Below are positions 40,502-60,969 of a stretch of DNA of 64,000 nucleotides, in pieces. Numbering within the stretch: the stretch's first letter is position 1; each line of letters starts with the position of its first letter. Under the pieces are notes generated by a model, which made no database searches, had not been told where the DNA came from, and was given only the letters and a program-made list of their open reading frames with translations. The position numbers were made by a program, and so were the translations under genes. Origin of the DNA: Candidatus Latescibacterota bacterium (GTDB taxonomy: Bacteria; Latescibacterota; UBA2968; GCA-2709665); NCBI GenBank assembly GCA_965248435.1, contig OZ252100.1, positions 1,824,001-1,888,000 of the forward strand. Direction: 5' to 3'.

Positions 40502-40504
40502 TGC

Positions 40505-41440: not shown

Positions 41441-41523
41441 GCAGACCAACCTTGCTAAAAAGAAAGAAAGGTGATAGGACAATCACCTATCACCCGAGTT
41501 CGAATCTAACTGAATCTTGATAC

Positions 41524-43433: not shown

Positions 43434-43473
43434 CGGATTGTCCCTTCCAGAACGTCCCTCCACCACACCCGCG

Positions 43474-43794: not shown

Positions 43795-44000
43795 AGATAG
43801 CTTAACCTTTTGAGCTTTTTTAAGAACCAGATACCGTAACATACCAGCACAATGCATCCCGCAAACGCCGCCACCCCCATTGCCAGATTCATCCCATCTC
43901 CCGATACAGAATAGGCCTGAACCGCCCAGATCCCGAAGCCGAGACAACACAGGATGGAGACCGCGATGAAGAAGACGTGGAAAGCTTTGAGAGACATCAC
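43791..44000 (-). CDS. Small 2-TM membrane protein (MSLKAFH...)
   Basis: Two hydrophobic helices, basic C-terminus; tight operon packing. Confidence 0.7.
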   Translation of the reverse strand: MMSLKAFHVFFIAVSILCCLGFGIWAVQAYSVSGDGMNLAMGVAAFAGCIVLVCYGIWFLKKLKRLSYL

Positions 44001-44012
44001 GAATTCCGATCC

Positions 44013-44312
44013 TTAAAAGACCGACTCCGTAACCGTAAGCACCGGAAGCAACATCAGCACGATAAAAAAGACCACCGTAAGCGCTAGCACCCAGAAGATG
44101 ATCTGCTTCTCAGACACCAGGTGCATAAAGTAGCCGGCCACGAGAGAGCCCTTGATGGTAGCGATAAACAGGGCGATCAGAATGGTCATTGCTACGGATC
44201 GAATGTGGAGGTAGGAAACCCCAACGGTCACGACAGTCAGCACAGACAGCGCGGCAAAGACAATCAAGTAGACCTTTACGTGCTTTCTGACCTCTTCGGC
44301 GCTATGAGCCAT
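44013..44312 (-). CDS. Cytochrome c oxidase subunit IV
   Basis: Y..VF.AL..LT..TV, IA.IK..LV..YFMHL. Confidence 0.88.
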   Translation of the reverse strand: MAHSAEEVRKHVKVYLIVFAALSVLTVVTVGVSYLHIRSVAMTILIALFIATIKGSLVAGYFMHLVSEKQIIFWVLALTVVFFIVLMLLPVLTVTESVF

Positions 44313-44322
44313 TGCAAACTCC

Positions 44323-44919
44323 TTACAGGAGATAGAGGATCGGGAAGAGAAATATCCATACCAGATCCACAAAGTGCCAGTAGAGTCCGGCGCACTCGAT
44401 CCGGTTCGTAAACCCTTCGGAATCCGTCTTCCACATCGCACTTCCGGGGAAGAGCAGGTAGAGATTCACGACAATCCCACCAATCACGTGCAGCCCGTGA
44501 AGCCCGGTCATCGTAAAGTAGGTCGCATAAAAATTGCTGGTAGATGGAGAGATGCCCAGATGGAATTTGTGTGTGTACTCGAAATATTTTATGACCAGAA
44601 AGACGAACGCCAGAAGGATCGTCAATCCGAGATACAGCTGGAACTTGCCGAAATTATCCATCTTCAGCGAGGCCCACGCCATCACCATCGTCACGCTCGA
44701 GGCAATGAGAACGAACGTATTGAGCGTCGCCAGCGGTACATTCAGCAGCTCCCAACCGTGCGGCCACGTTTGGGCCCCCACACGGAGCAGCACCAGCGTT
44801 GAAAAAAGCGCCCCGAACAGCATGACTTCCGATGCCAGGAAGAGCCAGATCCCCAGCTTCCCGTTGTAGACTCCGGTGATGGGATGAGGCTCTACTCGAT
44901 ATGGAATCTCAACTGACAC
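44323..44919 (-). CDS. ctaE: Cytochrome c oxidase subunit III
   Basis: GIWLFLASEVMLFG, NT..LI.SS, TGLHGLHV, YWHFVDLVW. Confidence 0.93.
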   Translation of the reverse strand: MSVEIPYRVEPHPITGVYNGKLGIWLFLASEVMLFGALFSTLVLLRVGAQTWPHGWELLNVPLATLNTFVLIASSVTMVMAWASLKMDNFGKFQLYLGLTILLAFVFLVIKYFEYTHKFHLGISPSTSNFYATYFTMTGLHGLHVIGGIVVNLYLLFPGSAMWKTDSEGFTNRIECAGLYWHFVDLVWIFLFPILYLL

Positions 44920-44947
44920 GATCGAAACCTCCCAGCTGATTGCGCGA

Positions 44948-46741: not shown

Positions 46742-46751
46742 ACGAATCCCC

Positions 46752-47522
46752 TTAGAATGAAAATTCGTCCTCTTCCTCTGCCTCAGCCTGCTGGGCTTCC
46801 AGCCAGGCTTCGAACGCCTCTGGCGTTTCGATCGTCAACTGGCCGCGCATTCGAAAATGACCGAGCCCGCAGAGTTGGGCGCACGCGATATCGAACTTGC
46901 CCGTCCGCGTCGCCTCGAACCAGATCTTGATCTCCTGCCCCGGAATGACATCCTGCGTCAACCGCATCACCGGAATCTTGAAACTGTGGATCACATCCTT
47001 GCTAGAGAGACGAACAACAACCGGTTTGTTGGGTACGATATGCAGGTTGTTGATCGAATTAAAATCGTCCTGCCCGTTCGGGTCGTCCGGGTCCAGCCCC
47101 AACAGATTGTCGCTGGTCACAAGCTCCGGGGCCGTTCTGCCGAAGATTCCATCCCTACCCGCGTAATGGACGTTCCATGCAAACTGCTCGCTCACGACCC
47201 GAACGACCTGAGCCTCCGACTGGGACGGGAAATGGTGCTTGAAAGCCGACCACGCGGGGATCGAAATCCCGATCAGGAGGACCGCCTCCACAACCACGAC
47301 GGCGATCTCCACATACTTGGACGTCTTTCCCTTGACTGGATCATAGGTCGCTCGGGGGTTGGCACCCTCCCGAAAGCGGACTAAGCAATAGAAAAAATAG
47401 ATCCCCCAACCGACGAACAGCGCGATCATGAACCAGTGTATCCAGTTGATCAGGAAGTCGACGACGTGCCCGTGGGTCGAGACATCGATTGGGAGCCAGT
47501 ATCCATATACCTTTTCTTCCAT
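46752..47522 (-). CDS. ctaC: Cytochrome c oxidase subunit II (CuA, no fused heme c)
   Basis: DVIHSF, CAQLCGLGH..M CuA motif. Confidence 0.95.
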   Translation of the reverse strand: MEEKVYGYWLPIDVSTHGHVVDFLINWIHWFMIALFVGWGIYFFYCLVRFREGANPRATYDPVKGKTSKYVEIAVVVVEAVLLIGISIPAWSAFKHHFPSQSEAQVVRVVSEQFAWNVHYAGRDGIFGRTAPELVTSDNLLGLDPDDPNGQDDFNSINNLHIVPNKPVVVRLSSKDVIHSFKIPVMRLTQDVIPGQEIKIWFEATRTGKFDIACAQLCGLGHFRMRGQLTIETPEAFEAWLEAQQAEAEEEDEFSF

Positions 47523-47576
47523 CAAGATTCCTCCCGGCGTCGGTGATTATCCAACGCTATCGCGACGGAGTTTAAG

Positions 47577-48320
47577 CTACGATTTCTTTTTCTTGGGTAT
47601 TTTGAACGTAAAATCGACGGCTGCAGCCTCTCCGTCCTTTATGGACACTTCCTGGGTCTGGGAACCCAGTCTCTCGTGCCAGGCCTCCACGGTGTAGGTC
47701 CCCGCGGGCAGTCCCTTCAATTCAAACGCCCCTCCGTCTCCAGTCACGGCAAAGAAGGGGTGATCCATCACGCCGACGTAGCTCTGCATCCAGGGATGAA
47801 CGTCGCATTTGACGGGAATCATCACCTCGGCCTTGTCAAAGGTCTTGGTCTTCACCTTCAAGAATTTCGGCATGGCCATATTGAACTCGGTATTGACCTT
47901 CGGTTTGGGATGGATGTTGTGAAGCGTCCCGTCATTGTTCAGAATCTTGATCGGCTGGCCCGCCCTGACGCCAAGTACGTGGGGCTTATACATGCACCCG
48001 TTCTGATCCAGAACCACCGGTTCGGCTGGAACGTCGAATTTCTTGCCCTCTAACCCCGCCTTGACATACACAAATACATTTCTCAACGTCCCGTCGTCGT
48101 TTACGACAACCACCTCACTGCGGGCCGGCGCATCGGCGGAATGCTTGCCCGCGCACACGGGGTCCGCAGCCATCTGTAGTTTCTTACGTCCGGGCTTCTT
48201 ACCCCCCGGCAGATCCAGACTCACTTTTCCCGTTACAGCAGCACTCCCCGCGAATGCCCTTCCCGAAGACAGGCAAACCAAAGTGAACGCGACAAACAAG
48301 ACATAACTCAAGAACCTCAT
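47577..48320 (-). CDS. Exported protein with cupredoxin-like core in carboxypeptidase-regulatory-like domain
   Basis: Signal peptide; DQ.GC.Y.PHV, HNIH, KCDVHPWM (His...Cys-x2-His-x2-Met type-1 Cu-like ligands); GLPAGTYTV.AWH. Confidence 0.75.
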   Translation of the reverse strand: MRFLSYVLFVAFTLVCLSSGRAFAGSAAVTGKVSLDLPGGKKPGRKKLQMAADPVCAGKHSADAPARSEVVVVNDDGTLRNVFVYVKAGLEGKKFDVPAEPVVLDQNGCMYKPHVLGVRAGQPIKILNNDGTLHNIHPKPKVNTEFNMAMPKFLKVKTKTFDKAEVMIPVKCDVHPWMQSYVGVMDHPFFAVTGDGGAFELKGLPAGTYTVEAWHERLGSQTQEVSIKDGEAAAVDFTFKIPKKKKS

Positions 48321-48359
48321 GTTATCCTCCTTTTAAGGGCCGTACCCCTATCCACCACC

Positions 48360-51300
48360 TTATCGTTGACTCAGCCTTCTGTCCTGATGCAGACCGAAGA
48401 AAATATAGTCTGTCAGGGTCTGAATGACGCTCTTACTGGGTAGGATCATGATCCCGTCTTCCGGCACCGTCCCCTCAGGAAGGGTCAGATAGCGGGTCAG
48501 ATTGATCCCGTCTGCCCGTTCGGGTAGATACGTCATCTCGTCCCCGAAGAACGTAGGCATCTTGGTTCCGGGCTGGATCTTCTGAGGATCCCAGAGCCAG
48601 GACCTGATCCAATCCGGTTTCAGACGTTCTTTTGCCATCGTCAGGTCTGGCGCCCAACTGGCCGGATCCCCCTTGGGTTTGATTTCTCCCTGCTGATGGC
48701 ACGTCCAGCAGTTGTAGATCTCTTCGCTGAACAGCGCCTTTGCCGCTCGTAGATCCCTTCGCGTCAGGCGCGTTTCCACGAGCGAATGATACGGGAATTG
48801 CTGCTTGTCGAGTCGCGAAAAATAGGTGACGAGGTCGATGGCTTCCTGATCATCAAACCCGAACGTCGGCATGCGGACGTCCAGCCACGGCCTGATCGGA
48901 ATCGGTTCCTTCAGAAATTCGAAGAACCAGTCGGGTTGGACCTTCTGGCCCTCCCCATTGAGCACCGGCGGTGTGAATCCTACCGCCTCTGACTCAGAAA
49001 CGCCATCCTCCACATAGGCGCCAACCAGAACATCGCCGATCGCCCTCCCCTCATCCTCTATAATGTGGCATCCCTTGCAGTTGCGCTCGTAAACCAGACG
49101 GCGTCCCTTTTCGATTTCAATTTCGGAGGGCGCGAGGTCTTTCTTCGCGGTTGGCGAAACGTAGGACCTGCTGAAGCTCAACAGCGCTGTCGTGACGGCC
49201 CGTGCATCGCTATCGCTCAGACCAAAGTGAGGCATACGAAGCTTCTCGTCAAACCGCTTCACCTTGCCTTCATCAAACACCCTAGGTTGTTTCAGCTTCG
49301 TAAATAACCAGTCGTGACGGGTGTGCGGAATGTTCAGCGGGTTTAGAGCAAAGTCGAGCTTGTCTACGTCTTTGCTCCCTTCCTCCGTTAGCTCCGTCCC
49401 GATACGCTGAATATCTTCGAAACCCGAGATCATATGGCAGCCAAAGCACCCCTGTCGGGCGATCATCTTTTCGCCCAACCAGACGTCCCGCTCGAGATCG
49501 GACATCGCATCCAACTTCGCTGCCGCTTGAGCGATGGGAAACCTGCTCTCGAGACCCTCCAGGACGACCTTGTCTCTCAGGTCGAGATCCACCTCAGCTG
49601 GCCGGCGCATTTCGAAGTCGCGGTTACGGAGGGTCATCAGGTAAGCCGTGATGTCGGAGGCCTCCTGGTCGGTTAGACGGAGATCAGGCATCAGCGTTTC
49701 TGGAAAGTATGCCTCCGGATCCTTCAGCCACGCATACAGCCATCCTGCGGATACTTTGCCTCCGACGCCACTCAGATTTGGGCCAAAGTTTCGCAGGCCA
49801 TACGTCTGTTCCAGGTCATCTCCCCTCCCAAGAACGTGACATCCTCTGCACCCGACCCGGGCAGCCAGAGCCTCTCCCCGATTCGCATCTCCTTTCACAG
49901 GTGGATCGGGGTAGTCTTGTTCCCCAGAGTTTTCAAACAGATAGGTCACGATCCCGTTGATCACGGCAGTATTTCGAGCGATATCCTCGGCGGAACTGAC
50001 ATTCGGCAAATCGAACAGCTTGGGCATCTTTGTCGATGGGCGGAACCCCTTGGGATCCCGAACCCAGTTCAGGGTCCACTCCCTTTGCAGCTTGGCGGCG
50101 GCCTTTCTCAGGTCCGGACCCACTTTCCGAAGATCCTCGTAACCGGCGATTTTGTGACATCCGTGGCACCCGAGTGTCTTGATCAGGTGTAGACCCCGGT
50201 TGAGCCTCTCGGCCTTTGGGACCTCCACCACACCGGAATGGCACTGAGCACAAGTAGATTCGACGTAGTGACTGGGCAGCATCGGATAGTCCCAGTAGTG
50301 CTTCTCGTGCCAGCCGTAGAGCTCGCGCCATCGCTCGGCCTCCGATTCATCCGAGGGGGTATGAGCCGCGTTGACAAAAGTAATCCCCCGATCTCGCCCC
50401 AAGTGGCAGGTCGTACAACCCACCTTATCGATCGGATGGGGTGACGCGCTCCCCAGATACAGGTCCATTTGAGGGTGCGTGGCCAAGACCTGCGCGCGCC
50501 CATTTCGCTCCGCCTCCGGATAAACATCCTCCACATATTTTCTGAGGACTTCATCTTGGAACAATCCCGTCTCCGGATCGACCTCATAACCTGCCCGATC
50601 GATGTTCACGTGACAGGTATTGCACCGGTCAACCTTAGGTACCTGGACGAAATTGATATCGTTCTTCAGCTCACCCAACACGATCTGCCGAACCTTGATC
50701 GATGGATCGATGAAATCGACCATCGGCATGTTTCTGAACATGTTGGGAAAACTGGGAACAATGTCCGAAAGATTCCGGCGCAGGAGCTCAGCGCTTCGAA
50801 ACAGGGCTGTGTTCTGTTTCTCAAGCTCATCTTTTCGGCCGGCCACCTCGTCGACGATCTGCTGCTCCGCCGCCTGCCTGGCCTCAACCGCTTCCTTGAC
50901 CCTTCGGAATGAGCCCATCCGGTCTTCCATTTCAGCTAGTTTTGTTTCCTTCTCCTTGGCCTCGTGTTCTTTTCCTTTGCGCGCACTTTCCTCGTACTCG
51001 TACTTTACCACGTCGTAGTGCGCCTTTTCAAACCTGAGATCCTGATCCGCTTTATACCACACTCCCTCGAGGTCTCCCAACGCAGCGAGGGCGGCTTCGT
51101 AACGGTCCTTCTGTGTCTCGATGGAGGCCTCTACTTCGACGATTTCAGCGGCTATCCTTTTCAATTGATCTGCATCCACATCGCGTTGCGCAGATGCCAG
51201 TTCTGTTTCGACTTTGTGTTGCTCGAGTGCCATCGCTTCTCGCTGGATCCCCTTCCACTCCCGATCATAATCGTCCCAGATCATCCACACCATGCAAACA

Positions 51301-51398
51301 GCGAGCGCGACACTGGACAGGGCAAAGATGGCGTTAAGCGTGTTCAGATTGTAGACAAAATCTAAAAACCCTTGTGGTTTCTGCTCGTTCATCAACAC
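48360..51398 (-). CDS. Membrane-anchored octaheme cytochrome c with coiled coil
   Basis: Eight CxxCH: CNTCH, CTTCH, CAQCH, CHGCH, CRGCH, CFGCH, CKGCH, CWTCH; N-terminal TM helix and long coiled coil; repeated P...MP motifs. Confidence 0.92.
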   Translation of the reverse strand: MLMNEQKPQGFLDFVYNLNTLNAIFALSSVALAVCMVWMIWDDYDREWKGIQREAMALEQHKVETELASAQRDVDADQLKRIAAEIVEVEASIETQKDRYEAALAALGDLEGVWYKADQDLRFEKAHYDVVKYEYEESARKGKEHEAKEKETKLAEMEDRMGSFRRVKEAVEARQAAEQQIVDEVAGRKDELEKQNTALFRSAELLRRNLSDIVPSFPNMFRNMPMVDFIDPSIKVRQIVLGELKNDINFVQVPKVDRCNTCHVNIDRAGYEVDPETGLFQDEVLRKYVEDVYPEAERNGRAQVLATHPQMDLYLGSASPHPIDKVGCTTCHLGRDRGITFVNAAHTPSDESEAERWRELYGWHEKHYWDYPMLPSHYVESTCAQCHSGVVEVPKAERLNRGLHLIKTLGCHGCHKIAGYEDLRKVGPDLRKAAAKLQREWTLNWVRDPKGFRPSTKMPKLFDLPNVSSAEDIARNTAVINGIVTYLFENSGEQDYPDPPVKGDANRGEALAARVGCRGCHVLGRGDDLEQTYGLRNFGPNLSGVGGKVSAGWLYAWLKDPEAYFPETLMPDLRLTDQEASDITAYLMTLRNRDFEMRRPAEVDLDLRDKVVLEGLESRFPIAQAAAKLDAMSDLERDVWLGEKMIARQGCFGCHMISGFEDIQRIGTELTEEGSKDVDKLDFALNPLNIPHTRHDWLFTKLKQPRVFDEGKVKRFDEKLRMPHFGLSDSDARAVTTALLSFSRSYVSPTAKKDLAPSEIEIEKGRRLVYERNCKGCHIIEDEGRAIGDVLVGAYVEDGVSESEAVGFTPPVLNGEGQKVQPDWFFEFLKEPIPIRPWLDVRMPTFGFDDQEAIDLVTYFSRLDKQQFPYHSLVETRLTRRDLRAAKALFSEEIYNCWTCHQQGEIKPKGDPASWAPDLTMAKERLKPDWIRSWLWDPQKIQPGTKMPTFFGDEMTYLPERADGINLTRYLTLPEGTVPEDGIMILPSKSVIQTLTDYIFFGLHQDRRLSQR

Positions 51399-51434
51399 GC
51401 CTTTCCAGTTTTCGACGAACCTGGAATCCTGGGT

Positions 51435-52511
51435 TCAGATGTTGAAGAAGTATTCCGGGATAGCGACAATATACTTGAGGTTGAAAAGCCAGCGCAGCAG
51501 CATCTTTACAGGTAGGGCAACAAACATTAAGAGGAGAAAGATCATTACACTGTAGCGGGCGAACCCCATTCTTTTATAAAAGTCCTTGAACACCGTCTGG
51601 GCCAGAACCGGTGGAGGGATCAAGAAGTAGAGGGCCACGACCACGAACCCCCAGATCTCACGAGTCAACCAGAAACTCGGCAACCCGACCCCCAAAAGAC
51701 TCACGTAGATATATTCGGAGAGGTTTATGTTGACCAGCGCCTCCAGCTTGTGCAGGTCCCAGTATTCATACGGACCGAAAAAGTTCCAGTTAGGCCCCCT
51801 CAGGAAGGTACCGATGGTGATCATGACGACCCAGAGCACCACAAACCCGAAAAGGAACACCGTGATCGCGAAGGACCTTTGCTTGAAGGTGTAGTAGCCG
51901 GATCCTCTCGGATTTCGATCCATGTAGGGAATGGCCATCAGTCCAACGACAATCAGGGTGGGCAGGACCACCCCGGCAATCCACGGATCATAGTAAACCA
52001 GCATCTCCTGCAACCCAAGAAAGTACCAAGGTGCCTTAGAGGGATTCGGAGTCTTTGCGGGGTTGGCTGGCTCTTCCAGCGGAGCCTCGATGAGGATGGA
52101 CCAGAGGATCAGCGCCACGCTGGCCAGGGTCAAACAGATAAGCTCCGTATATACCAGATGCGGCCACGTGAGCACTTTCTGACTGAATTCCTGTTTCTCT
52201 CTGGGTTCCTCGCCCCTTGAAATCCGATCGTCGTTCTCGCAGGCCTGCTTCATGCTGAACCACACAAAAAACCCAACAAAAAAAAGCAGCATGACGATCG
52301 GAATATTGTCCCCTTTGGTCACAATAATCCGAAAATCAGGATCCTGAAAACTCGCAACAAAGAATACGATAGAGAGGAGCAGAACAGGCAGGCCTACCCG
52401 GTTGGTCCAGACACCCCGAGTACGCAGGGCAAGGAAAAAGATGACTGCAAAAAGCGGCAGGAATATTTCAGGAGCAGTAATCCAGTTGATTAAGTCTTTC
52501 AGTGCCTCCAT
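51435..52511 (-). CDS. Cytochrome b C-terminal part (subunit IV-like), extended
   Basis: WP.LV..E, APLEEPANP..TPNPSKAPWYFLG (PEWY-equivalent); many extra TM helices. Confidence 0.85.
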   Translation of the reverse strand: MEALKDLINWITAPEIFLPLFAVIFFLALRTRGVWTNRVGLPVLLLSIVFFVASFQDPDFRIIVTKGDNIPIVMLLFFVGFFVWFSMKQACENDDRISRGEEPREKQEFSQKVLTWPHLVYTELICLTLASVALILWSILIEAPLEEPANPAKTPNPSKAPWYFLGLQEMLVYYDPWIAGVVLPTLIVVGLMAIPYMDRNPRGSGYYTFKQRSFAITVFLFGFVVLWVVMITIGTFLRGPNWNFFGPYEYWDLHKLEALVNINLSEYIYVSLLGVGLPSFWLTREIWGFVVVALYFLIPPPVLAQTVFKDFYKRMGFARYSVMIFLLLMFVALPVKMLLRWLFNLKYIVAIPEYFFNI

Positions 52512-52573
52512 AATCTCCTCTGTAAACCGACTTCGAAATCCTTCTGGGGCCCGGTTCAAGTCTCAACACCGGG

Positions 52574-53359
52574 CTACATCGGCCCGGAAATCCCCCCATC
52601 CTTTCTCACCCGCCAGAAATGGACGCCCATCAACGCAGCCGCTATGAAAGGAATGGCGAGACAGTGGAGGACATAGAAACGCAACAGGGCCCCCTCGCCC
52701 ACAAACCTTCCTCCCAAAAGCGCAAACCGGGCATCGTCACCCGCGTGAACCAGCCCGATGTCCCCGATCATCAGAAAGGCGGCCCCCGGACCCTCGTGGC
52801 CCAGGAAGGGGGTCGCCCGAGCCATGTTCGAACCGACCGTTATGGCCCATATGGCCAGCTGGTCCCACGGCAGGAGATACCCTGTAAAGCTGAGCATCAG
52901 TGTCAGCAACAAAAGGATCACGCCGATGGCCCAGTTGAATTCACGCGGCGGCTTGTAAGACCCGGTCATAAATACACGCAGCATGTGGAGCCAAACCGTG
53001 ATGACCATCAAGTGAGCGCCCCATCGGTGGATCTCTCGCATGATCCCGAGCGGCACCTGCTCACCCAGATCGATCATGTCGGTATAGGCATACTCCAGCG
53101 TCGGGCGGTAGTAGAACATCAACAGGATACCCGTGATGGTCTCCACAAGAAACACGAAGAACGTGAGTCCACCCATGCACCAGGTGTAGCGGACGCGTAT
53201 GCCGGACTTCGGTGTCCGGACCGGATGGAGATGTAGAACAATGTTCGTCAGTACGACCTGGGCTCGGCCTCGCTCCTCCCTCGGAATATCGTGACGGAAG
53301 ATCGACTTCCAGATCTGTGAGCGTTTCACGCTGTCTAAGAGGCCAGAAACCTTTGGCAT
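52574..53359 (-). CDS. petB: Cytochrome b6-like N-terminal subunit of Rieske/cytochrome b complex
   Basis: WCMGG (heme ci Cys position), [45 protein letters not shown]. Confidence 0.9.
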
Positions 53360-53394
53360 AAATTACTCTCCCTCAACTCGAGGCGATTCGGTCA

Positions 53395-54186
53395 TCAAAT
53401 CCTGAGAAACGACTCCGGATTATCCCATTGTCCCTTTTCGTACTGAAACTTCACTGTCTTATCCACTAAGATTTGCCCGTCCTCCGACAACACGATACGC
53501 GCCCGCTCCAGGGGTCTTGGGGCAGGTCCCTCGAAGTTGATCCCCGTGGAATAGAACCCGCTTCCGTGACACGGGCACTTGAATTTCTGTTCGTTGACAA
53601 GCCAGTTCGGCGTACACCCCAGGTGTGTGCAGACTGAAATGAGGGCGAACATCCCATCTGTATTCCGGACAATCCAGATGGCGAACTTGTCTTTCCATCG
53701 CTCGTCTACTGCCCCCATCGCATACTCATCGGGAAAACCGATCTTGAAAAATTGGGGAGGCTCGAACAACACGTTCGGAAACATGAAACGAGCAGTCGCC
53801 AGAAGACCCGCGGTACTCGCCGAAGCGAACGCGACCCAGGCAAGAGCCAGCCAGGAGAAGAATCCCCTGCGAGTCGTAATCCCCCCTTCTAAGACCGACT
53901 GCATTCGGGGCGGTCCCGGCCTGACAGACCTGGGCGCCGGAGAGGTCTGAATCACCACCTCGCGCTCCTTGGAACCCTCCTCTTTCTTCGCGGTCAAACT
54001 CCGCGCAGCCGAGGCCCGATCGGCAGCCCCTTCAGCCTTCTTTGCCGGTGCCTTCGCCGCCGGCTGCGAGGGAGCATCGGTCCCGCCCCCGCGCGCCTTG
54101 CGCATGGCTTCCGCCTTTGCCTTCGCCCTTGCTACGCGGTCCGGGATATCATCGAATGAAGAAAGATCTACATCTTCCTCAGCCAT
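53395..54186 (-). CDS. Rieske iron-sulfur protein with ~100-aa N-terminal extension
   Basis: CTHLGC and CPCHGS; Tat motif TRRGF followed by TM helix. Confidence 0.95.
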   Translation of the reverse strand: MAEEDVDLSSFDDIPDRVARAKAKAEAMRKARGGGTDAPSQPAAKAPAKKAEGAADRASAARSLTAKKEEGSKEREVVIQTSPAPRSVRPGPPRMQSVLEGGITTRRGFFSWLALAWVAFASASTAGLLATARFMFPNVLFEPPQFFKIGFPDEYAMGAVDERWKDKFAIWIVRNTDGMFALISVCTHLGCTPNWLVNEQKFKCPCHGSGFYSTGINFEGPAPRPLERARIVLSEDGQILVDKTVKFQYEKGQWDNPESFLRI

Positions 54187-54260
54187 ATAAGCTCCGTTTG
54201 ATGCGAGTCTCGGGAAGCCGGATCTCGCCTGAGCTGCCGAAACAACCTGAATCGCCGGCC

Positions 54261-54289
54261 AATATATTCAAGCTAAAATGGGTTGTCAA
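54261..54289 (-). promoter_or_regulatory. Sigma-70 promoter of the respiratory operon
   Basis: TTGACA-N17-TATATT upstream of the Rieske gene. Confidence 0.7.
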
Positions 54290-54350
54290 GGTCAAGATTC
54301 GTTGTGTCTGGGGCCGGTTTTAGGCACTCTGGATTATGTTGCTTTCCGCC

Positions 54351-55295
54351 CTACATCTCCTTCAGAACCTCTATGGCAGCCTGACGAACCTTCATATCAG
54401 GGTCTTTTTTGCGCAATCTCTCGAGGGTTTGAATCATCGAACCTGCCCGCACCTTCCCGATCGCGTAGATCGCCTTTACCATCGCATCCCGCTTTTGCAA
54501 TTCACTCATCCGTGGAAACGAGTTGAGGTAGGCGCGGTTCAGCATTTCAGCCAACACATCCACCCCTGCGTCATCCTTCATTCCCGCCAATTGTAATGCC
54601 GCATTCCAACGGACATCCGATTCCCGATCCCTCAAAGCCACGACAAGGGCTGGTCTTGCCCGTGCATCCTTCAGCTGCCCCAGGGCTCCGATGGCCGCTT
54701 TTTGGATTCCTGAGTCTTCGTTAGAAACCATATCCAAAAGGGGAAGCACGGCGCTCGTGTCGCCCTGCCTGCCAAGCGAGGCCATCGCGTATATTCGAGT
54801 CTCATCATCAGGATCGTTAAGCGTCTCGATCAGAACCTGTACGATCGAAGGGTCGCGCACAAGTCCCATCGCCAGGGCAAGATAGCGCCGCACTCTGGGG
54901 TCGTCCGAGCTTGAGGACTCAAAGATGTCGATCAACTCCCTTGCAAACCTTGAGTCTATCCTTCCCTGGCGCTGCTGATCGGCAAGGACCCTTGACAACT
55001 CGTATGCCGCCTGCCACCGACTGTTGATCCCCCCAACCTTCACTCTGTTCAAATAGTCGTTCGGCGTCTGATCCTCTCCTGTTAAGAGCGTCAAGAACAG
55101 GTAGATCATCACGCCCACAACGACAATCGCTAGCGGAAAGAAAGCGAACTGCGCGATCTGACGCGATCTCGGCACATCCTGATCTGACATCGGGGCCGTT
55201 GCCTGCTTGACAATCTGCCGAAGATCTTCAGACTGCGAATCTTCGCCGTTCGTCGGTGCCTTGTCAGACTCGTGCACGAGCGCTCTCTCATCCAT
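54351..55295 (-). CDS. Membrane-anchored HEAT/PBS-lyase repeat protein
   Basis: One TM helix then repeats D..VR..A..ALG (DPRVRRYLALAMG, DVRWNAALQLA, KVRQAAIEVL). Start must lie downstream of its promoter. Confidence 0.85.
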   Translation of the reverse strand: MDERALVHESDKAPTNGEDSQSEDLRQIVKQATAPMSDQDVPRSRQIAQFAFFPLAIVVVGVMIYLFLTLLTGEDQTPNDYLNRVKVGGINSRWQAAYELSRVLADQQRQGRIDSRFARELIDIFESSSSDDPRVRRYLALAMGLVRDPSIVQVLIETLNDPDDETRIYAMASLGRQGDTSAVLPLLDMVSNEDSGIQKAAIGALGQLKDARARPALVVALRDRESDVRWNAALQLAGMKDDAGVDVLAEMLNRAYLNSFPRMSELQKRDAMVKAIYAIGKVRAGSMIQTLERLRKKDPDMKVRQAAIEVLKEM

Positions 55296-55358
55296 CCAAA
55301 ACTTGGTAAATACTTCGATTTCGAGCCGAATGCTCAATCCACCGAAACCCACGCTCCC

Positions 55359-55387
55359 AATATAGTTATGTCCATAAGCCAAGTCAA
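55359..55387 (-). promoter_or_regulatory. Sigma-70 promoter of the HEAT gene
   Basis: TTGACT-N17-TATATT; spacer contains palindrome TTATG-GA-CATAA. Confidence 0.6.
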
Positions 55388-55462
55388 GATATTGGTATTT
55401 GAAGAATAAGAGGAATTAATCTTTAGCCAAGGCTAGTGGGCTGAACTTGGCTTTGTTCCACC

Positions 55463-55490
55463 TTGACAAGGCAGAACAAAGCGCTATATT
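55463..55490 (+). promoter_or_regulatory. Sigma-70 promoter of the ferredoxin gene
   Basis: TTGACA-N16-TATATT; the ORF-track TTG start at 55463 coincides with this -35 box. Confidence 0.65.
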
Positions 55491-55549
55491 CCCCCCTCGA
55501 CGGACGAATGCAGAGCCTGGTGCCACCTACTTCAAATAAGGAAAACTAT

Positions 55550-56299
55550 TTGGTTGACGTCGATCTGTCTCAATTCGATGATATCGCCGATCGAGTGGCC
55601 AGAGCCAAAGCGAAATCCGAAGCTCTACGAAAGGCGAAAAGCGGCGAAGACAGTGGGGATTCGTCCCCCGGTCTGTCCGCACAACCGACTGCGGAAGAAC
55701 CAGTTAGCAAGGCTGTCGAGGCAACCGCCGGAAAGACAGCTGTGACTGGACTTCAAATCCTGGAATTTGCCCTTGGGACGCATTTCAAATTGAAAGGTCG
55801 AGCGGGCAGGGTCATCGGCACGCGGTATGACCTCGTCAGTTTTGTGTATGACGATGATCCCGGGCAGACGGTGACGGCGGATCGATATCGATTGAGCAAC
55901 GCCTATGCCGAAGGAGCCCTCGAGTTTGCGCCCAAATCTGAGGCCTATCGCCCCGATCGGGTCAACAAGACGGATCGAATTGACTACCACGAATATGTCT
56001 GGCTCGACACCAGGAAGGGGATGACGGCAAAGAAGAAACGACCGCGCTCGATTGCCATCATCAACCCCGATTATTGCACGGGGTGCGACGCCTGTATCGA
56101 AGTATGTCCAACCGATTGCATTGAAGAAGTGGACGTGGCGGACGCAGGTCTGGATGGGATCGGAAGCTTTTGCGAAGTTCGGCTCAGTGACTGCATCGGG
56201 TGCGTCCAATGCGTACACATCTGCCCGTGGGAAGCCATCGACATGGTCGATACTGATAAAGTAGAGGACGCGTACGGACTCCCCACAGGCAGCCTATAG
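55550..56299 (+). CDS. 2x[4Fe-4S] ferredoxin-domain protein with N-terminal peptide shared with the Rieske protein
   Basis: CTGCDACIEVCP and CIGCVQCVHICP; TTG start at 55550 with AAGGA SD. Confidence 0.88.
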   Translation: MVDVDLSQFDDIADRVARAKAKSEALRKAKSGEDSGDSSPGLSAQPTAEEPVSKAVEATAGKTAVTGLQILEFALGTHFKLKGRAGRVIGTRYDLVSFVYDDDPGQTVTADRYRLSNAYAEGALEFAPKSEAYRPDRVNKTDRIDYHEYVWLDTRKGMTAKKKRPRSIAIINPDYCTGCDACIEVCPTDCIEEVDVADAGLDGIGSFCEVRLSDCIGCVQCVHICPWEAIDMVDTDKVEDAYGLPTGSL

Positions 56300-56649: not shown

Positions 56650-57570
56650 TTGCAATCAGGGGAATCCATTAGCCGTCAGAAGAAGCAAGATAAGTCAGCT
56701 TCTTCATCTGCCTCTGCAAGTCAGTCACGCCCTAACCCCGAAAACCGAACCCTTGAGACATTGACCGAATACATGGGCTCCGACGCAGGCCTCAAAAGGA
56801 CCGCCATCTCGACATCTGGTGGAGACGAACGTCTGGATAGAGACCCGGATAGGTCCCCTGGTTCAAAGGAAAGGCTCCTCCAGGAGTGGGAGATCGAAGA
56901 CTCGGCCGAAGCAGGCCCTCCTTCCGAAGAGGATCTGCTCAAGCGGATGGAGATTCTGGAAACACGGCTTGACGCCTTCGAAACCACCTGCTACACCTTC
57001 CTTCTCTATGCCAAACAGCTTACCGATAGAACCGTTTCGTTTTTCGAAGACATTTTTGGTCTTGGCCAGGATGACCTTGCGCAGATTCACGACCGACTTG
57101 GTGTAAACTACAACAACAAGGGTGACTACGAAAAAGCCGTAGAGGCATTCAAGAAGCTCGTGGAAATAAACCGCACCCCAGCTTCCTGCTTTAAGCTGGG
57201 CGTCGCCTCGGACAACAATGGAGACTTTCAGGGAGCCATCGAAGCACTCCGGACAGCAATCTCCATGGACAAGGAATACCTCAAGGCCTACTACAAACTG
57301 GCGGAAGTCTACGCCAGAGTCGAAAACTTTGGAGAAGCCATCAGATTTCTCACACAGGCAACAGAGATCGATCCGAAAAATGACGAGACACAATACAGAC
57401 TGGGCAATGTGCACAGTGCACGGGGGAGTTACGACCAGGCGATTGCCGCGTTCAACAAAGTACTGAAATCGAATCCGAGCTTCCCGGGCATTTATCAGAG
57501 CCTTGGAATCGCCTATGAGCAAAAGGGCGATCAACCCAAAGCCCTGGAGTTCTTTAAAAAATCAATCTAA
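56650..57570 (+). CDS. TPR protein, MamA-like, with disordered N-terminal extension
   Basis: TTG start with GAGGAGG SD; five TPRs ending GIAYEQKGDQPKALEFFKKS; pre-TPR helices LD....Y..L.YAK.L....V.FF...F....D resemble the MamA N-terminal segment as I recall it. Confidence 0.75.
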   Translation: MQSGESISRQKKQDKSASSSASASQSRPNPENRTLETLTEYMGSDAGLKRTAISTSGGDERLDRDPDRSPGSKERLLQEWEIEDSAEAGPPSEEDLLKRMEILETRLDAFETTCYTFLLYAKQLTDRTVSFFEDIFGLGQDDLAQIHDRLGVNYNNKGDYEKAVEAFKKLVEINRTPASCFKLGVASDNNGDFQGAIEALRTAISMDKEYLKAYYKLAEVYARVENFGEAIRFLTQATEIDPKNDETQYRLGNVHSARGSYDQAIAAFNKVLKSNPSFPGIYQSLGIAYEQKGDQPKALEFFKKSI

Positions 57571-57580
57571 TGCGGTTACC

Positions 57581-58012
57581 TTGAGCATACGAGCCCTGAC
57601 AAACCGCCTGCGAGAAGAGCAGATAGAAGCCCTGAGGCAGAGAAAGTATGCGCCTTTGACGGCCGGGCCTCCGAGCGAGCCTGCCGTGCCGGCGCGGGCC
57701 GAGCCCGAGGTTAGAGAAAATAATGAATCGTCCTCTCTGGCCGAAGCCGGGTTTTCTGCCGATCCATCCGGACAGAACGACATTCCCAAGGTCGGGTTGC
57801 GCTTTCAGAATCGCGATGCGCGTTGGCAGGTGCCGTGCGGCATCGTCGAGCGTTTCGGTCTTTCTGCCTTTAACGAAACTTTTCCAGAAACAGCGACGAT
57901 TCCCGCCAACTCCAATTCAGACGTTCAGGACGAGCCCGGGGAGGAAGTGGAACCGGCATACTCCACTGTAGACCCTGAGCCGATAACGATCGAACTGCAA
58001 TCACACAAGTAG
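57581..58012 (+). CDS. Acidic Pro/Glu/Ser-rich hypothetical protein
   Basis: Open frame filling the gap between the TPR and actin genes; TTG at 57581 is a tentative start; low complexity with one short hydrophobic island (WQVPCGIVERFGLSAF). Confidence 0.55.
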   Translation: MSIRALTNRLREEQIEALRQRKYAPLTAGPPSEPAVPARAEPEVRENNESSSLAEAGFSADPSGQNDIPKVGLRFQNRDARWQVPCGIVERFGLSAFNETFPETATIPANSNSDVQDEPGEEVEPAYSTVDPEPITIELQSHK

Positions 58013-58090
58013 ACATCCAGAAACGGGTTGTTTCTCGTCCCGTAGCTCGGGAAAGCGTGTCCAGAGGTCAAGAAGAAGGGGAAGGGAAAA

Positions 58091-59098
58091 ATGGCTGAAG
58101 AAACCAGATCGGACGCCACCGGCGGGTTCGCCACGCAGCAGGGCAACGGGAAGCCGCTTTCTTTGGGCATCGACCTGGGCACGGCAAACAGTGCGGTTGC
58201 GACCAGCACCGACATCACGCGAACCGTACCGAGCGTGGTGGGGTGGCCGAAGGATCTGGTTGCCTTTAAATTCCTGCAAAAGCCCATTGTATTTGGTGAA
58301 GAGTGTATCAGAAACCGCATGTCGCTCGACATCTTCTACCCGCTCGATAAAGGGGTCCTTAAGTATAGACCCGATTCCTCGAGGTATGACGACGTGCCGG
58401 GTGACAACCGTGAGGTGGCCGCAGTCGAAGAACTCGTAAGACACGTCGTGGATTTGGCAGAAATTCGATCCGGAGACGCTGTCCGTGCTGTGGTCGGATC
58501 ACCAGCGCTCGCAAGCGCCAGTGATAAACAGGCATTGGTTGAAGTAATGCGGAATCTGGTCGACTCCGTGATGGTCGTGTCAGAGCCCTTCCTGGTCGCA
58601 TACGGCCTTGGCCTTTACAACAACGCCCTCGTAGTGGATATCGGAGCAGGGACGCTTGACCTCTGCAGGATGCACGGCACTATCCCGGACGAGTCCGACC
58701 AAAGAACGTTGTACCATGCCGGAAACTCCATCGACGAAAACTTTCATTCGCTCCTGCAGGAAAAGGTGAAAGACTCGCCCATTTCCCTCCATTTCGCGAG
58801 GAGCATCAAGGAACGCTATGCCTTCGTTTCGCCAATAACAGAAGGCATCAGCGTTGAGTTTCAAGTTGAGGGGAAACCGGTTCTCTATAATATCGCAGAT
58901 GAACTCAAGGAGGCCTGCGAGGGTATCCTGCCGGATATGCTCGAGGCGATTCGGGAGTTGTTTACGACCTTCGAGCCGGAATTTCAAGATGAGCTTCGAA
59001 ACAACATCATCTTGGCCGGCGGAGGAAGTCAAATCAGAGGTCTACCAGAAGTCATCGAGGCCAACCTCGCCGAATTCGGACCAGCACGGCGTCGATGA
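58091..59098 (+). CDS. mamK: Actin-like ATPase, MamK-like; C-terminus frameshifted as assembled
   Basis: LGIDLGT, SVVGWPKD....K.L......G.E.......LD..YPL..GVL (MamK-type rather than MreB-type), VVSEPFLVAYG, VDIGAGTLDLC, P..Q..L..NIILAGGGS.I.GL. Confidence 0.75.
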   Translation: MAEETRSDATGGFATQQGNGKPLSLGIDLGTANSAVATSTDITRTVPSVVGWPKDLVAFKFLQKPIVFGEECIRNRMSLDIFYPLDKGVLKYRPDSSRYDDVPGDNREVAAVEELVRHVVDLAEIRSGDAVRAVVGSPALASASDKQALVEVMRNLVDSVMVVSEPFLVAYGLGLYNNALVVDIGAGTLDLCRMHGTIPDESDQRTLYHAGNSIDENFHSLLQEKVKDSPISLHFARSIKERYAFVSPITEGISVEFQVEGKPVLYNIADELKEACEGILPDMLEAIRELFTTFEPEFQDELRNNIILAGGGSQIRGLPEVIEANLAEFGPARRR

Positions 59099-59174
59099 TC
59101 CCATCTACGCGGGCGCACTTGGTGCGCTCAAGCTTGCCCAGGATATGCCCCCCAGCGAGTGGGAAAACGTCTAG
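59091..59174 (+). pseudogene. Out-of-frame C-terminal segment of the MamK-like actin
   Basis: +1 frame encodes VDDPIYAGALGALKLAQDMPPSEWENV*, the expected connect-2 and terminal helix. Confidence 0.8.
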
Positions 59175-59215
59175 AAAACTCACCCTTGCTTTAACCCTCA
59201 TCCACTAATATTTCC

Positions 59216-59830
59216 GTGTCCGACACTCTCCTGAATCTCCAACTCGATCAGATCGACCAGCGAAGTTTGCCGCTTCGTCAACGATTGGGTAGCAGCGAAC
59301 TCGAAGAGCTGAAACGATCCATCCAACGATATGGCGTCATCGAACCCGTTGTCGTTGCCCAGTCAGAGTCAGGCTACAAGCTCGTTGTCGGCAGAAGAAG
59401 ATTTGAGGCGTGCCGACTTCTCGGGCTGGAGACCATTCCCGCGATCGTACGAAAGATGTCCGACGAGCGGGGCCGCGAACTCTCTTATCAGTCAAACCTT
59501 CAGAGTGAGATGCTCAATCTGGCCGACGAGGTCGAATTCCTTCGTAGCATCGACATATTCCACCTACCCGATGAAGAAATCGCCAGTCGATTTGGCATGT
59601 CCCCCGAGGAAGTCTCCGTGGCGAAACGGTTTAATCGTCTACCGCCCCCGCTTCGGGAGGCCGTGCGCACTGGAGAAATCGATGAACGTCGCGCACTGGC
59701 CTTGACTCGACTCTCAGGTGAGGTCGAGCAGACGCGGTTTTTTCGCTACATCCAGCAAAACGATCCACCTCTGGAAATCTTGGAAAAGAGGATAGACGAA
59801 GCCCGAGACGGGACCGCGGCACATATCTAA
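59216..59830 (+). CDS. ParB/Srx-fold protein with degenerate HTH and no C-terminal domain
   Basis: EL..SI..YGVIEP.VV.......LVVGRRR..A...LG..TIPA.V, SNLQ.E.LN; 204 aa; GTG start. Confidence 0.85.
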   Translation: MSDTLLNLQLDQIDQRSLPLRQRLGSSELEELKRSIQRYGVIEPVVVAQSESGYKLVVGRRRFEACRLLGLETIPAIVRKMSDERGRELSYQSNLQSEMLNLADEVEFLRSIDIFHLPDEEIASRFGMSPEEVSVAKRFNRLPPPLREAVRTGEIDERRALALTRLSGEVEQTRFFRYIQQNDPPLEILEKRIDEARDGTAAHI

Positions 59831-59920: not shown

Positions 59921-60969
59921 GAGTTCAATAAGGAAGTGCAACACTTAGGGTAGCAACTGTCCTATCCTAAGTGTATGGGAAACAATTACAAGCATCTTAC
60001 GATAGACGAACGCGAGCAGATTGCGCTTTGTCGAGCCACTGGTGCAAGCCTTAGAGATATTGCCAAGGCCCTTGACCGGAGCGCCAGCACGATTTCAAGA
60101 GAGTTGAAACGTAATCCGTCCCCGATAGCTGAGAGTTACTCGGGCCTCCAGGCTCACAGAAGGGCTGAGAAACGTAAGCGGGAGGCCGGCAAGCGGAAAC
60201 GGCTGAAGAATCCGGTTATCCGGCGATATGTCGAGACCAAACTCAAGCAAGGATGGTCTCCCGAGTTGATCGCTGGGAGGCTTCCCGAGGAGCGTCCGAG
60301 CGCGGGTATCAGCCACGAAGCCATCTACCAGTATATCTACGATCCAAAGGTGCACAAGCAGCGGGATCTGGTTGCTTGCTTATCCCGAGCTCACAAAAAA
60401 CGAAAGCCGCGGTGGCATACCCGAAAACACCGGGAAAGCCACATTCCAGGCCGTATTTCGATCGATCGACGTCCCCGTTACATCGAAAAACGGAAACAAC
60501 CTGGCCACTGGGAATCCGACACCATCATCTCTCGTGAGAGCAAACAGGCCGTTGGCGCTTGTCTTGAGCGATCGTCGAGATACCTACACCTGGCTAAGCT
60601 GGCAAAGAACGGACCCTCGGAGGTCGCCGAAGCGATTAATCGACGCCTTGGGCGACATCCTCCCCACATGAGGAAGAGCATCACATATGACAACGGATCC
60701 GAAAACGGCCAACATCAACGGGTCAACGAGGTGCTTGGCACCAAATCCTATTTCTGCAAACCGTTCCACAGCTGGGAGCGAGGCGCTGTGGAAAACGCTA
60801 TCGGTCTGGTCCGCAGATACCTCCCCAAGAAGACAGACTTCTCAAAGGTCAGCAAACACGAGTTAAAGAAAATTCAGAACCGGATCAACAACCGACCAAG
60901 AAAATGTCTTAACTTCAAAACACCAGCTGAAGTCTTCAAGTCCAAGTGTTGCACTTAGTCATTGAATCC
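59921..60969 (+). mobile_element. IS30-family insertion sequence
   Basis: 26-bp imperfect terminal IRs GAGTTCAATAAGGAAGTGCAACACTT / GGATTCAATGACTAAGTGCAACACTT (21/26 identical) flanking the transposase. Exact ends (plus or minus 2-3 bp) and target duplication unresolved. Confidence 0.9.
59975..60958 (+). CDS. IS30-family transposase
   Basis: YKHLT..ER, RSASTISRELKRN, WSPE.I, GHWE.D, ITYDNG.E, WERG..EN, NNRPRK.L.FKTP.E. Confidence 0.96.
   Translation: MGNNYKHLTIDEREQIALCRATGASLRDIAKALDRSASTISRELKRNPSPIAESYSGLQAHRRAEKRKREAGKRKRLKNPVIRRYVETKLKQGWSPELIAGRLPEERPSAGISHEAIYQYIYDPKVHKQRDLVACLSRAHKKRKPRWHTRKHRESHIPGRISIDRRPRYIEKRKQPGHWESDTIISRESKQAVGACLERSSRYLHLAKLAKNGPSEVAEAINRRLGRHPPHMRKSITYDNGSENGQHQRVNEVLGTKSYFCKPFHSWERGAVENAIGLVRRYLPKKTDFSKVSKHELKKIQNRINNRPRKCLNFKTPAEVFKSKCCT

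Follow-up and report, generated by a model that had tools for sequence, protein, structure and literature searches.

A common N-terminal peptide on two divergent genes

The window analyzed here, a stretch of 64,000 nucleotides from the metagenome-assembled genome (MAG) of an uncultured marine bacterium of the Latescibacterota, contains two divergently oriented genes whose products open with a common 27-residue peptide, referred to below as the tag. One gene encodes the Rieske iron-sulfur subunit of a predicted b6-type cytochrome complex, and the other encodes a protein composed of the tag, a linker, a small β-barrel, and a 2x[4Fe-4S] ferredoxin domain, referred to below as the ferredoxin protein (Table 1). 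The tag reads DVDLSSFDDIPDRVARAKAKAEAMRKA in the Rieske protein and DVDLSQFDDIADRVARAKAKSEALRKA in the ferredoxin protein. Of the 27 residues 23 are identical, and these are specified by the same codon in 9 cases and by different codons in 14; at the DNA level, 59 of 81 bases agree. The coordinates and the counts of residues and codons given in the first-pass annotation, which had been made from the DNA letters without database searches, were exact. When the complete Rieske and ferredoxin proteins were compared by BLASTP, the tag region gave the sole alignment, with 32 of 53 positions identical (E value of 4e-14 for this single comparison). A six-frame fuzzy scan of the 5.67-Mb genome allowing up to 12 substitutions returned these two copies and no third one.

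The Rieske reading frame begins with MAEEDVDLS. For the ferredoxin protein, the longest open reading frame (ORF) starts at position 55463, and a TTG codon at position 55550, located 7 nt after an AAGGA sequence, yields the start MVDVDLS. The tag is present in 37 of the 38 database homologues of the ferredoxin family, beginning at residue 1 to 3 of the gene call in 32 of them and at residue 9 to 35 in 5; owing to this N-terminal position in most homologues, TTG 55550 is the likely start. In both proteins the tag is followed by a Gly-rich stretch and then by a linker rich in Ala, Pro, Ser, and Glu, so that the arrangement of an N-terminal tag and an Ala/Pro/Ser-rich linker described in the first-pass annotation holds for the two proteins; the N-terminal position holds for most homologue gene calls as well. 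The tag itself consists of an acidic turn with the motif DLSxFDxIxD and a basic, Ala-rich helix with the motif RVARAKAKxEAxRKA, which together form a module of about 30 residues. The helix, some 17 residues long (Ala occupies positions 17, 21, 25, and 29 of the ferredoxin protein), has a net charge of +5, the preceding acidic half carrying −4 to −6.

About 70 residues separate the Rieske tag from the downstream sequence TTRRGFFSW, which is followed by a hydrophobic anchor; residues 104 to 120, TTRRGFFSWLALAWVAF, show the S/T-R-R-x-F pattern and hydrophobic stretch of a twin-arginine translocation (Tat) signal. Given this distance, the Tat signal does not include the tag. Where the Tat signal is not cleaved off, Rieske proteins retain their N-terminal part in the cytoplasm, and the position of the tag upstream of the Tat motif therefore places it on the cytoplasmic side, as had been proposed before. 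The ferredoxin protein has no Tat motif. Between the tag and the Tat motif, the Rieske extension carries two further conserved segments, namely ADRAsAARsLT/ADRAAAARALT at about positions 53992 to 54024 (identity of 0.81) and the Pro-rich VIVQTSPAPPxIRPGPxR at about positions 53905 to 53961 (identity of 0.79), with an identity of 0.38 in the spacer. The Pro-rich segment is a conceivable ligand of the SH3-like barrel of the ferredoxin protein.

The tag helices of the two proteins have hydrophobic moments of 0.08 and 0.03 and mean hydrophobicities of −0.64 and −0.60; the high hydrophobic moment and single hydrophobic face that characterize amphipathic membrane-targeting or encapsulation helices are absent. 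A simple polybasic patch was rejected as a description of the tag, because the acidic turn offsets the charge of the helix and nearly every position is conserved, those of the Ala residues included. A β-clamp-binding motif was likewise discarded, as its consensus has a Gln and a second Leu that are missing from DLSxF. Searches of the N-terminal parts against Pfam at E values up to 10 retrieved only DUF6465 (E value of 0.18) and LEA_6 (E value of 3) for the Rieske protein and no family for the ferredoxin protein, and the best NCBIfam matches of both proteins fall in their C-terminal iron-sulfur domains, with none over the tag. The earlier statement that the tag corresponds to no named domain thus agrees with both collections. 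Kinship to DUF6465/DUF6466, suggested by the E value of 0.18 for the Rieske N terminus and one of 0.0033 for a tail fragment of the complex I subunit NuoI (see below), was dismissed as chance, because only 1 of 22 proteins with NuoI tails matches DUF6466. Excerpts of the literature on the Rieske protein and MamK of Latescibacteria, on the C-terminal repeats of RnfC, and on C-terminal extensions of NuoI contained no description of the peptide.

Table 1. Features of the locus and of the split form of the ferredoxin protein. Positions are those of the window unless one of the related loci L084 and L107 is named; AF2, AlphaFold2; pLDDT, predicted local distance difference test; TPR, tetratricopeptide repeat.
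Feature	Positions	Strand	Evidence or remark
Multiheme cytochrome c of the complex, 1,012 residues	48360..51398	-	Pfam Cytochrom_C, 6e-26
Subunit IV-like C-terminal half of cytochrome b, 374 aa	51435..52559	-	Pfam Cytochrom_B_C
Cytochrome b6-type subunit, 261 aa	52574..53359	-	PDB 2zt9_A, E value 2e-40
Rieske iron-sulfur subunit	53395..54186	-	Pfam Rieske, 3e-8; NCBIfam b6f PetC-like, 5.7e-19, below its cut-off
Twin-arginine motif TTRRGFF, followed by hydrophobic anchor	53857..53877	-	Translation; conserved in the orthologue alignment
Cytoplasmic N-terminal extension of the Rieske protein, 105 residues	53872..54186	-	Tag, linker, two further conserved segments
Rieske N-terminal tag, residues 5-31	54094..54174	-	Acidic DVDLSSFDDIPD, then basic Ala-rich helix RVARAKAKAEAMRKA; mean pairwise identity 0.80, 19 orthologues
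HEAT-repeat single-pass membrane protein, first gene of the Rieske operon, between the tagged genes	54351..55382	-	Pfam HEAT_2, 5.4e-27; probable start ATG 55295
Ferredoxin protein (tag, linker, small β-barrel, 2x[4Fe-4S] ferredoxin)	55550..56299	+	Likely start TTG 55550
Ferredoxin N-terminal tag, residues 3-29	55556..55636	+	Identity 0.81 over 20 orthologues; AF2 helix 15-31, pLDDT about 77
SH3/Tudor-like small β-barrel, residues 70-128	55757..55933	+	AF2 pLDDT 86-93
2x[4Fe-4S] ferredoxin domain	56030..56296	+	Pfam Fer4 families; net charge −10
Cassette downstream of the ferredoxin gene: MamA-like TPR protein, 169-residue unknown protein, MamK-family actin-like protein, ParB/Noc-like protein	56650..59830	+	
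Split form, gene for tag-tag-barrel-hydrophobic C terminus (about 50 residues)	L084 5989-6855; L107 7941-8834		
Split form, free ferredoxin gene	L084 7012-7329; L107 8841-9167		105 residues in L084

Conservation of the tag and split forms of its carrier

Among orthologues of the ferredoxin protein, the mean pairwise identity was 0.81 for the tag, 0.79 for the barrel, and 0.87 for the iron-sulfur domain, but 0.30 for the linker; for the Rieske tag it was 0.80. An identity close to that of the catalytic domains, next to a linker at 0.30 and in spite of diverged codons, argues for selection on the peptide. In four other lineages, the two tags of one genome have 18 to 24 of the 27 residues in common, yet 7 to 11 codons in 11 of 12 comparisons; the remaining pair is exceptional, with 17 codons in common. 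Since synonymous sites are saturated, a recent DNA duplication or gene conversion was rejected, as was an RNA- or DNA-level element, which together with the codon divergence bears out the earlier view that conservation acts at the protein level.

A profile of 34 positions was built from 22 tags. It was positive in 30 of 168 genomes of the phylum, with two or three matches per genome, all of them in the Rieske gene and its divergent neighbor. By family and with the window genome left out, positives amounted to 21/21 in its own family, 6/31 in a second, 2/3 in a third, and 0/112 in the other eleven. Rieske and ferredoxin orthologues co-occur in the same 24 of 41 relatives, and the divergent order, with the ferredoxin gene on one side and the genes for the HEAT protein, Rieske protein, b6, subunit IV, and cytochrome c on the other, is kept in 26 of 26 related loci (from MAGs labeled Latescibacterota/Latescibacteria in 19 cases, Gemmatimonadota/Gemmatimonadetes in 5, and simply "bacterium" in 2). 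All 15 genomes of one genus and several other lineages have two tandem tags in the Rieske protein, spaced by about 30 acidic, Pro- and Ala-rich residues. As to expression, there is a weak hint from short contigs of four marine metatranscriptome libraries that match a portion of the ferredoxin gene and, of the Rieske gene, the 3′ part only; none of these contigs spans a tag, and they may stem from DNA carry-over.

The third family (locus L084) and one metagenome contig (L107) have, at the same genomic position, a split form of the ferredoxin protein encoded by two genes, one for a protein with tags, barrel, and hydrophobic C terminus and one for a free ferredoxin, the latter being followed by genes for a TPR, a MamK-like, and a ParB-like protein. 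The split-form barrel aligns with that of the fused form; this protein bears two or three tags and no cluster-binding cysteines. A metagenome scan based on a narrow alignment yielded 4 loci. That a tagged protein and a free ferredoxin are encoded at this one position speaks for a connection of the module with the ferredoxin. In the split-form lineage, the tags of the Rieske protein and of its partner both have Lys before DLS and RAAK in place of RKAK, with 17 of 24 identical residues differently encoded; as read from these sequences, the two tags change in parallel.

The barrel always accompanies the tag, and a word-based search with the barrel retrieved 38 proteins, all of the fused family. 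In the AF2 model of the ferredoxin protein, the linker and the iron-sulfur domain are of low confidence, with pLDDT values below 50 for residues 34 to 65. The best structural matches of the barrel obtained with VIA-align were TnsB (Z score of 6.9; root mean square deviation of 2.3 over 61 aligned residues), Spindlin-4 (6.3), CarD (6.2), the SETDB1 Tudor domain (6.1), and FeoA (6.1); as all Z values are below 8, they establish only the fold class, SH3/Tudor/KOW. A Foldseek search of the model against the PDB gave no match at an E value of ≤0.001, and a search of the ESM Atlas with residues 1 to 135 gave no usable match.

Relatives of the tag and its genomic neighborhood

A profile scan of the proteome and of public genomes, suggested in the first-pass annotation, retrieved the motif in the orthologues and disclosed two further types of tagged proteins, the split barrel-anchor form and NuoI tails. 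Among 1.84 billion representative proteins, the tag profile had 27 matches at an E value of ≤0.001. The 23 that were classified comprise 8 Rieske N termini or fragments, 4 ferredoxins, 5 split barrel-anchor proteins (with one cluster labeled Handelsmanbacteria by its source), 4 NuoI proteins or tails, and 2 unrelated repeat proteins. The four NuoI matches (P0021, P0022, P0025, and P0027) had E values from 7.6e-8 to 6e-4; the NuoI carriers (P0021 and P0033 to P0051) are labeled Marinimicrobia/Fidelibacterota by their sources. Marinimicrobia NuoI has a C-terminal tail of about 200 residues with two to three copies of a repeat of about 65 residues, each starting with DLSxLNxIxDRVARGKAK and separated by Ala/Pro/Glu-rich linkers. 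Alignment of the tags with this repeat by hhalign gave a probability of 96.6% and an E value of 6e-10 over 33 columns. AF2 predicts one short and three longer helices for the repeat (pLDDT values of 80 to 92), and the tag is, according to the profile alignment, homologous to its first half, i.e., the short helix and the first long helix. The two further helices that complete the domain of about 65 residues were not found in the tag, which continues instead into the Gly-rich stretch and the poorly conserved linker. In the second half of the first long helix, Ile, Leu, Val, and Leu of the NuoI repeat are replaced by Glu, Ala, Lys, and Ala in the tag; this loss of hydrophobic residues fits a half-domain whose packing partner, if there is one, would be provided in trans.

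Like the tag, the NuoI-tail repeat is arranged in tandem with linkers and belongs to a respiratory complex, namely to a 2x[4Fe-4S] subunit that faces the cytoplasm; it differs in that the motif forms half of a helical domain located at the C terminus, whereas the Latescibacterota tag, N-terminal or internal in position, extends no farther than the first long helix. The repeat is without a Pfam or NCBIfam model, and VIA-align of the NuoI-tail model returned generic helical bundles only (best Z score of 6.2), with no informative PDB fold. A suspected resemblance to PCP_red was discarded, as Pfam gave no such match at an E value of ≤1 or 0.1. Among shorter proteins, only two fragments with the repeat were found. 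To judge by profile comparison, this previously undescribed repeat is the closest sequence relative of the tag, and the tag itself is, by its pattern of conservation, a genuine peptide module under strong selection that has had no name so far and whose family reaches beyond the Latescibacterota.

A pattern scan of 185,579 species genomes furthermore revealed seven loci (L097 to L103) in MAGs of Actinomycetota (Mycobacteriales) that encode NuoI proteins with long Ala/Pro-rich tails. These tails have one or two C-terminal copies of GLPDRVARAKAKSAWVKKARKG, with the consensus IDQxTYDxAIAxGLPDRVARAKAKSAWVKKARKG, and match the tag with an hhalign probability of 96.7% over 22 columns, a similarity that misses significance at an E value of 0.001 in an unbiased search. 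The Actinomycetota tail is thus a possible distant relative of the tag.

The first-pass annotation had noted a loose resemblance to the tails of RnfC. RnfC/RsxC, a 2x[4Fe-4S] subunit in a membrane redox complex, resembles the tag carriers in that its tail has units of about 32 residues with an [IV]ARAKA core in tandem, polar spacers lying between them, and the RsxC tail of E. coli K-12 contains six 32-residue repeats with the core IARAKARK; the acidic DLSxFDxI half, however, is absent from these repeats. With filters off, hmmsearch of the tag profile against E. coli K-12 RsxC gave −70.1 bits for the full sequence and −3.5 bits for the best domain, in which only the six residues IARAKA were aligned. 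On the basis of these scores the resemblance is architectural, and homology is not supported.

The Rieske gene belongs to a supercluster on the minus strand (positions 39057 to 55382) that comprises, in order, the genes for the HEAT protein, Rieske protein, b6, subunit IV, the 1,012-residue cytochrome c, a CarboxypepD_reg protein, COX2, COX1, and COX3, followed by an ORF with no Pfam match (positions 43474 to 43950), CtaA, CtaB, an ABC transporter, and SCO1. The co-directional arrangement of the Rieske/b6 genes with an aa3-type oxidase set (COX2, COX1, COX3, CtaA, CtaB, and SCO1) suggests a bc-oxidase unit. The best PDB matches of the b6-type subunit are cyanobacterial cytochromes b6, and its Cys61 aligns with Cys35 of cyanobacterial b6 (VNIFYCLGG and VRYTWCMGG, respectively), the ligand of heme cn. 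Judged by these alignments, the complex is of the b6 type, with a split cytochrome b and the heme-cn cysteine retained. In the 1,012-residue cytochrome c, an N-terminal membrane helix is followed by about 170 residues that are weakly SMC-like (E values of 2e-5 and 4e-4, far below the cut-offs) and then by several c-type heme domains; the 170-residue stretch looks rich in coiled coil.

As a partner common to both tagged proteins, the first-pass annotation had considered a scaffold of the TPR, HEAT, or actin type. The gene for the HEAT protein, which has repeats of the PBS-lyase type, adjoins the Rieske gene in 26 of 26 related loci. The flanks of its membrane helix (n = 20) contain on average 2.1 Lys/Arg and 2.1 Asp/Glu on the N-terminal side and 1.65 and 3.25, respectively, on the C-terminal side; the predicted topology is therefore ambiguous and leans toward a cytoplasmic N terminus with the HEAT domain outside, in the periplasm. 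The short N-terminal tail, which would be cytoplasmic in this orientation, has a conserved acidic motif, EELRxIAEDATAP, and is a candidate contact of the tag.

The remaining two candidates are encoded in the cassette downstream of the ferredoxin gene. The TPR protein scores 146 bits against the NCBIfam MamA model, which has a cut-off of 200. For the actin-like protein, the closest solved structures are those of MamK (PDB 5ljw; E value of 9.5e-73), and the score against NCBIfam NF040964 is 358.1 bits at a cut-off of 400; from these scores, the gene is MamK-like and no member of the curated family. Scanning of the ORFs between 26.5 and 64 kb revealed no genes for magnetosome membrane proteins. 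The cassette adjoins the ferredoxin gene in 5 of 26 related loci, and in a sixth the TPR gene alone is present at the contig end. Several distant lineages have the cassette at this same place, the split-form contig L107 included. Of 41 related genomes, only 4 yielded a MamK-like gene; none was detected in the 15 genomes, many of them closed, of the genus with two Rieske tags, in the sister species, or in the two genomes of a further genus. Since so few genomes yielded the MamK-like gene and the tags are kept in 22 of 22 genomes of the family, it is not required and cannot encode an obligatory actin scaffold. The gene for the TPR protein lies beside the ferredoxin gene in only 6 of the 26 loci (adjacent loci were inspected, with no genome-wide search made). 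An IS30-type transposase gene (HTH_38 and rve; positions 59975 to 60958, plus strand) comes immediately after the ParB-like gene and borders the conserved block.

Proposed docking of the ferredoxin protein and alternative explanations

We propose that the tag, carried by a flexible linker, is a portable module for docking by which the barrel-ferredoxin protein is kept at the Rieske/b6 complex on its cytoplasmic face, and we assign this reading a probability of about one half. A protein-binding module of about 30 residues would be held on the cytoplasmic side of respiratory iron-sulfur proteins by an Ala/Pro/Glu-rich linker and would retain the soluble ferredoxin protein at the n-face of the b6-type Rieske/cytochrome b complex. 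The combination of a conserved element, a poorly conserved linker, and variable position and copy number represents the anatomy of a tethered docking module: the tag is found at the N terminus, internally, or at the C terminus, in one to three copies, and behaves as a position-independent and multivalent unit. Moreover, all carrier classes (the Rieske protein, its neighbor, and NuoI) are located at the cytoplasmic face of a membrane redox complex. The earlier idea of a docking or targeting peptide is thus in line with the anatomy of peptide and linker, the restriction to the Rieske gene and its divergent neighbor, and the variable copy number. Comparable designs are known from the peripheral-subunit-binding domains of 2-oxoacid dehydrogenases and the encapsulation peptides of microcompartments, in which a large assembly acquires a partner by way of a short helical element borne on a flexible Ala/Pro-rich linker. 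These tethered docking peptides bear no sequence relation to the tag; encapsulation peptides, in addition, are amphipathic, whereas the tag helix is not (hydrophobic moment of 0.03 to 0.08), and no shell genes were seen among the ORFs scanned.

Three modes of binding may be envisaged. First, the tags could pair with each other, an option that the parallel conservation and the lineage-specific parallel changes of both tags would fit. Second, the tag could bind the acidic 2x[4Fe-4S] domain; as each of the carriers has such a domain or a gene for one next to its own, this mode would explain all four contexts. Third, both tags could attach to one common site, for example, the n-face of b6/subunit IV or the cytoplasmic tail of the HEAT protein.

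Several points weigh against docking as formulated above. No interaction was seen in any of the results; binding and the identity of the partner are what we infer, starting from the observed sequence, conservation, distribution, and copy number of the tag and its homology to the NuoI repeat. If the tag of the ferredoxin protein bound the iron-sulfur domain of its own chain, it would compete with the Rieske tags. The parallel tag changes are known from one or two lineages, and the matches of the barrel are generic SH3/Tudor/KOW folds, with PetP, NdhS, and PsaE not among the matches listed. The split form is already membrane anchored and keeps two tags, so recruitment to the membrane cannot be the whole function. 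Finally, the Actinomycetota tails were retrieved with a 9-residue pattern of the tag itself, by which their similarity score is inflated. Multimer modeling, which the first-pass annotation had recommended, counts neither way: a complex prediction for the 105-residue Rieske extension and residues 1 to 135 of the ferredoxin protein scored 0.00 relative to a mark of 0.32, with no controls folded.

The best-placed alternative, which we nevertheless regard as unlikely, is that the tag acts as a multivalent sticker clustering respiratory complexes (bc dimers and, in Marinimicrobia, complex I) into patches or supercomplexes, with the barrel-ferredoxin protein serving as a cross-linker rather than as a docked electron carrier. 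The one to three tandem copies per protein with linkers of low conservation between them would suit such a function, as would the location of the genes in one bc-aa3 oxidase supercluster and the presence of the same module on a different complex, via NuoI, in another phylum. Because bc/b6f complexes are dimeric, the complex is expected to display two to four tags. However, none of the results indicates self-association, the helix has only about 17 residues, and just two genes per genome are tagged, with no oxidase subunit among them.

Quite unlikely in our view is a recruitment peptide for an iron-sulfur cluster maturation factor or a dedicated chaperone. Three of the four carrier classes are iron-sulfur proteins (the Rieske protein with its 2Fe-2S cluster, the ferredoxin protein, and NuoI with 2x[4Fe-4S]), and the fourth is a split derivative encoded beside a ferredoxin; furthermore, Rieske proteins receive their cluster in the cytoplasm prior to Tat export, and the Rieske tag, upstream of the Tat motif, is on that side of the membrane. 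The barrel-membrane anchor protein, though, retains two or three tags while having no cluster-binding cysteines, and a general signal of this kind would be expected neither to be confined to two genes of a 5.67-Mb genome nor to show tandem duplication and a strict neighbor relation.

Nonspecific charge binding of the Lys/Arg-rich helix to the membrane surface or to nucleic acid is very unlikely, even though the helix has a net charge of +5 and all carriers reside at or near the cytoplasmic membrane face: the low hydrophobic moment and a hydrophobicity of about −0.6 do not describe an amphipathic membrane helix, the acidic half cancels the charge, and charge binding would not require the near-complete conservation of the Ala residues and the acidic turn. 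Least likely of all is binding to the MamA-like TPR protein or the MamK-like filament as a means of positioning the complex in the cell, since, despite the peptide binding established for TPR domains and the cassette that follows the ferredoxin gene here, in the 5 related loci, and behind the split form on the metagenome contig, the tags are conserved normally in the lineages that have no cassette, among them the 15 genomes of the genus with two Rieske tags in which no MamK-like gene was found.

Returning to docking of the ferredoxin protein, the closest functional analogy would be PetP, an SH3-fold peripheral subunit on the cytoplasmic n-face of the cyanobacterial b6f complex, at the proposed ferredoxin-FNR (ferredoxin-NADP+ reductase) site and within 16 Å of heme cn; NdhS, PsaE, and the α subunit of ferredoxin-thioredoxin reductase likewise have SH3 folds and act where electrons are transferred (PMC9342900). 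The parallel lies in a small barrel of the SH3/Tudor class, in the present case fused to a ferredoxin and encoded beside a b6-type complex with the heme-cn cysteine. PetP, on the other hand, has no tag, linker, or iron-sulfur domain, and no sequence match or specific structural match of the barrel to PetP, NdhS, or PsaE was obtained among the matches listed, only the general fold class being common. Unlike the cyanobacteria, moreover, the present organism has a respiratory cluster of the bc-aa3 type and is not shown to be photosynthetic.

A more far-reaching version, which we consider rather unlikely, assigns the module a general role in the docking of 2x[4Fe-4S] ferredoxin-type domains; in Latescibacterota, it would tether a dedicated ferredoxin, via the SH3-like adaptor, to the cytoplasmic face of the b6-type complex. 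Electrons could then pass directly from ferredoxin to the quinone pool via heme cn in a nonphotosynthetic aerobe, and the NuoI tails would be the equivalent for complex I. Whether ferredoxin passes electrons directly to b6-type complexes on their n-side, close to heme cn, has long been an open question in photosynthesis (PMC9342900). If the far-reaching version were true, tethering at heme cn would represent a natural, hard-wired variant of the contact between ferredoxin and b6f that has long been postulated in cyclic electron flow. In this lineage, a ferredoxin and the Rieske protein of a b6-type complex, encoded by paired genes, bear the same conserved peptide, and the ferredoxin has, in addition, an SH3-like barrel of the fold class used at ferredoxin sites elsewhere. 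Should the tag dock the ferredoxin, the peptides and the soluble protein would be small enough for binding and structural work that does not depend on cultivation. The tag family constitutes a short module, undescribed so far and common to Rieske, ferredoxin, and NuoI proteins in two phyla, which could be of use for their annotation and may possibly serve as a natural tethering tag.

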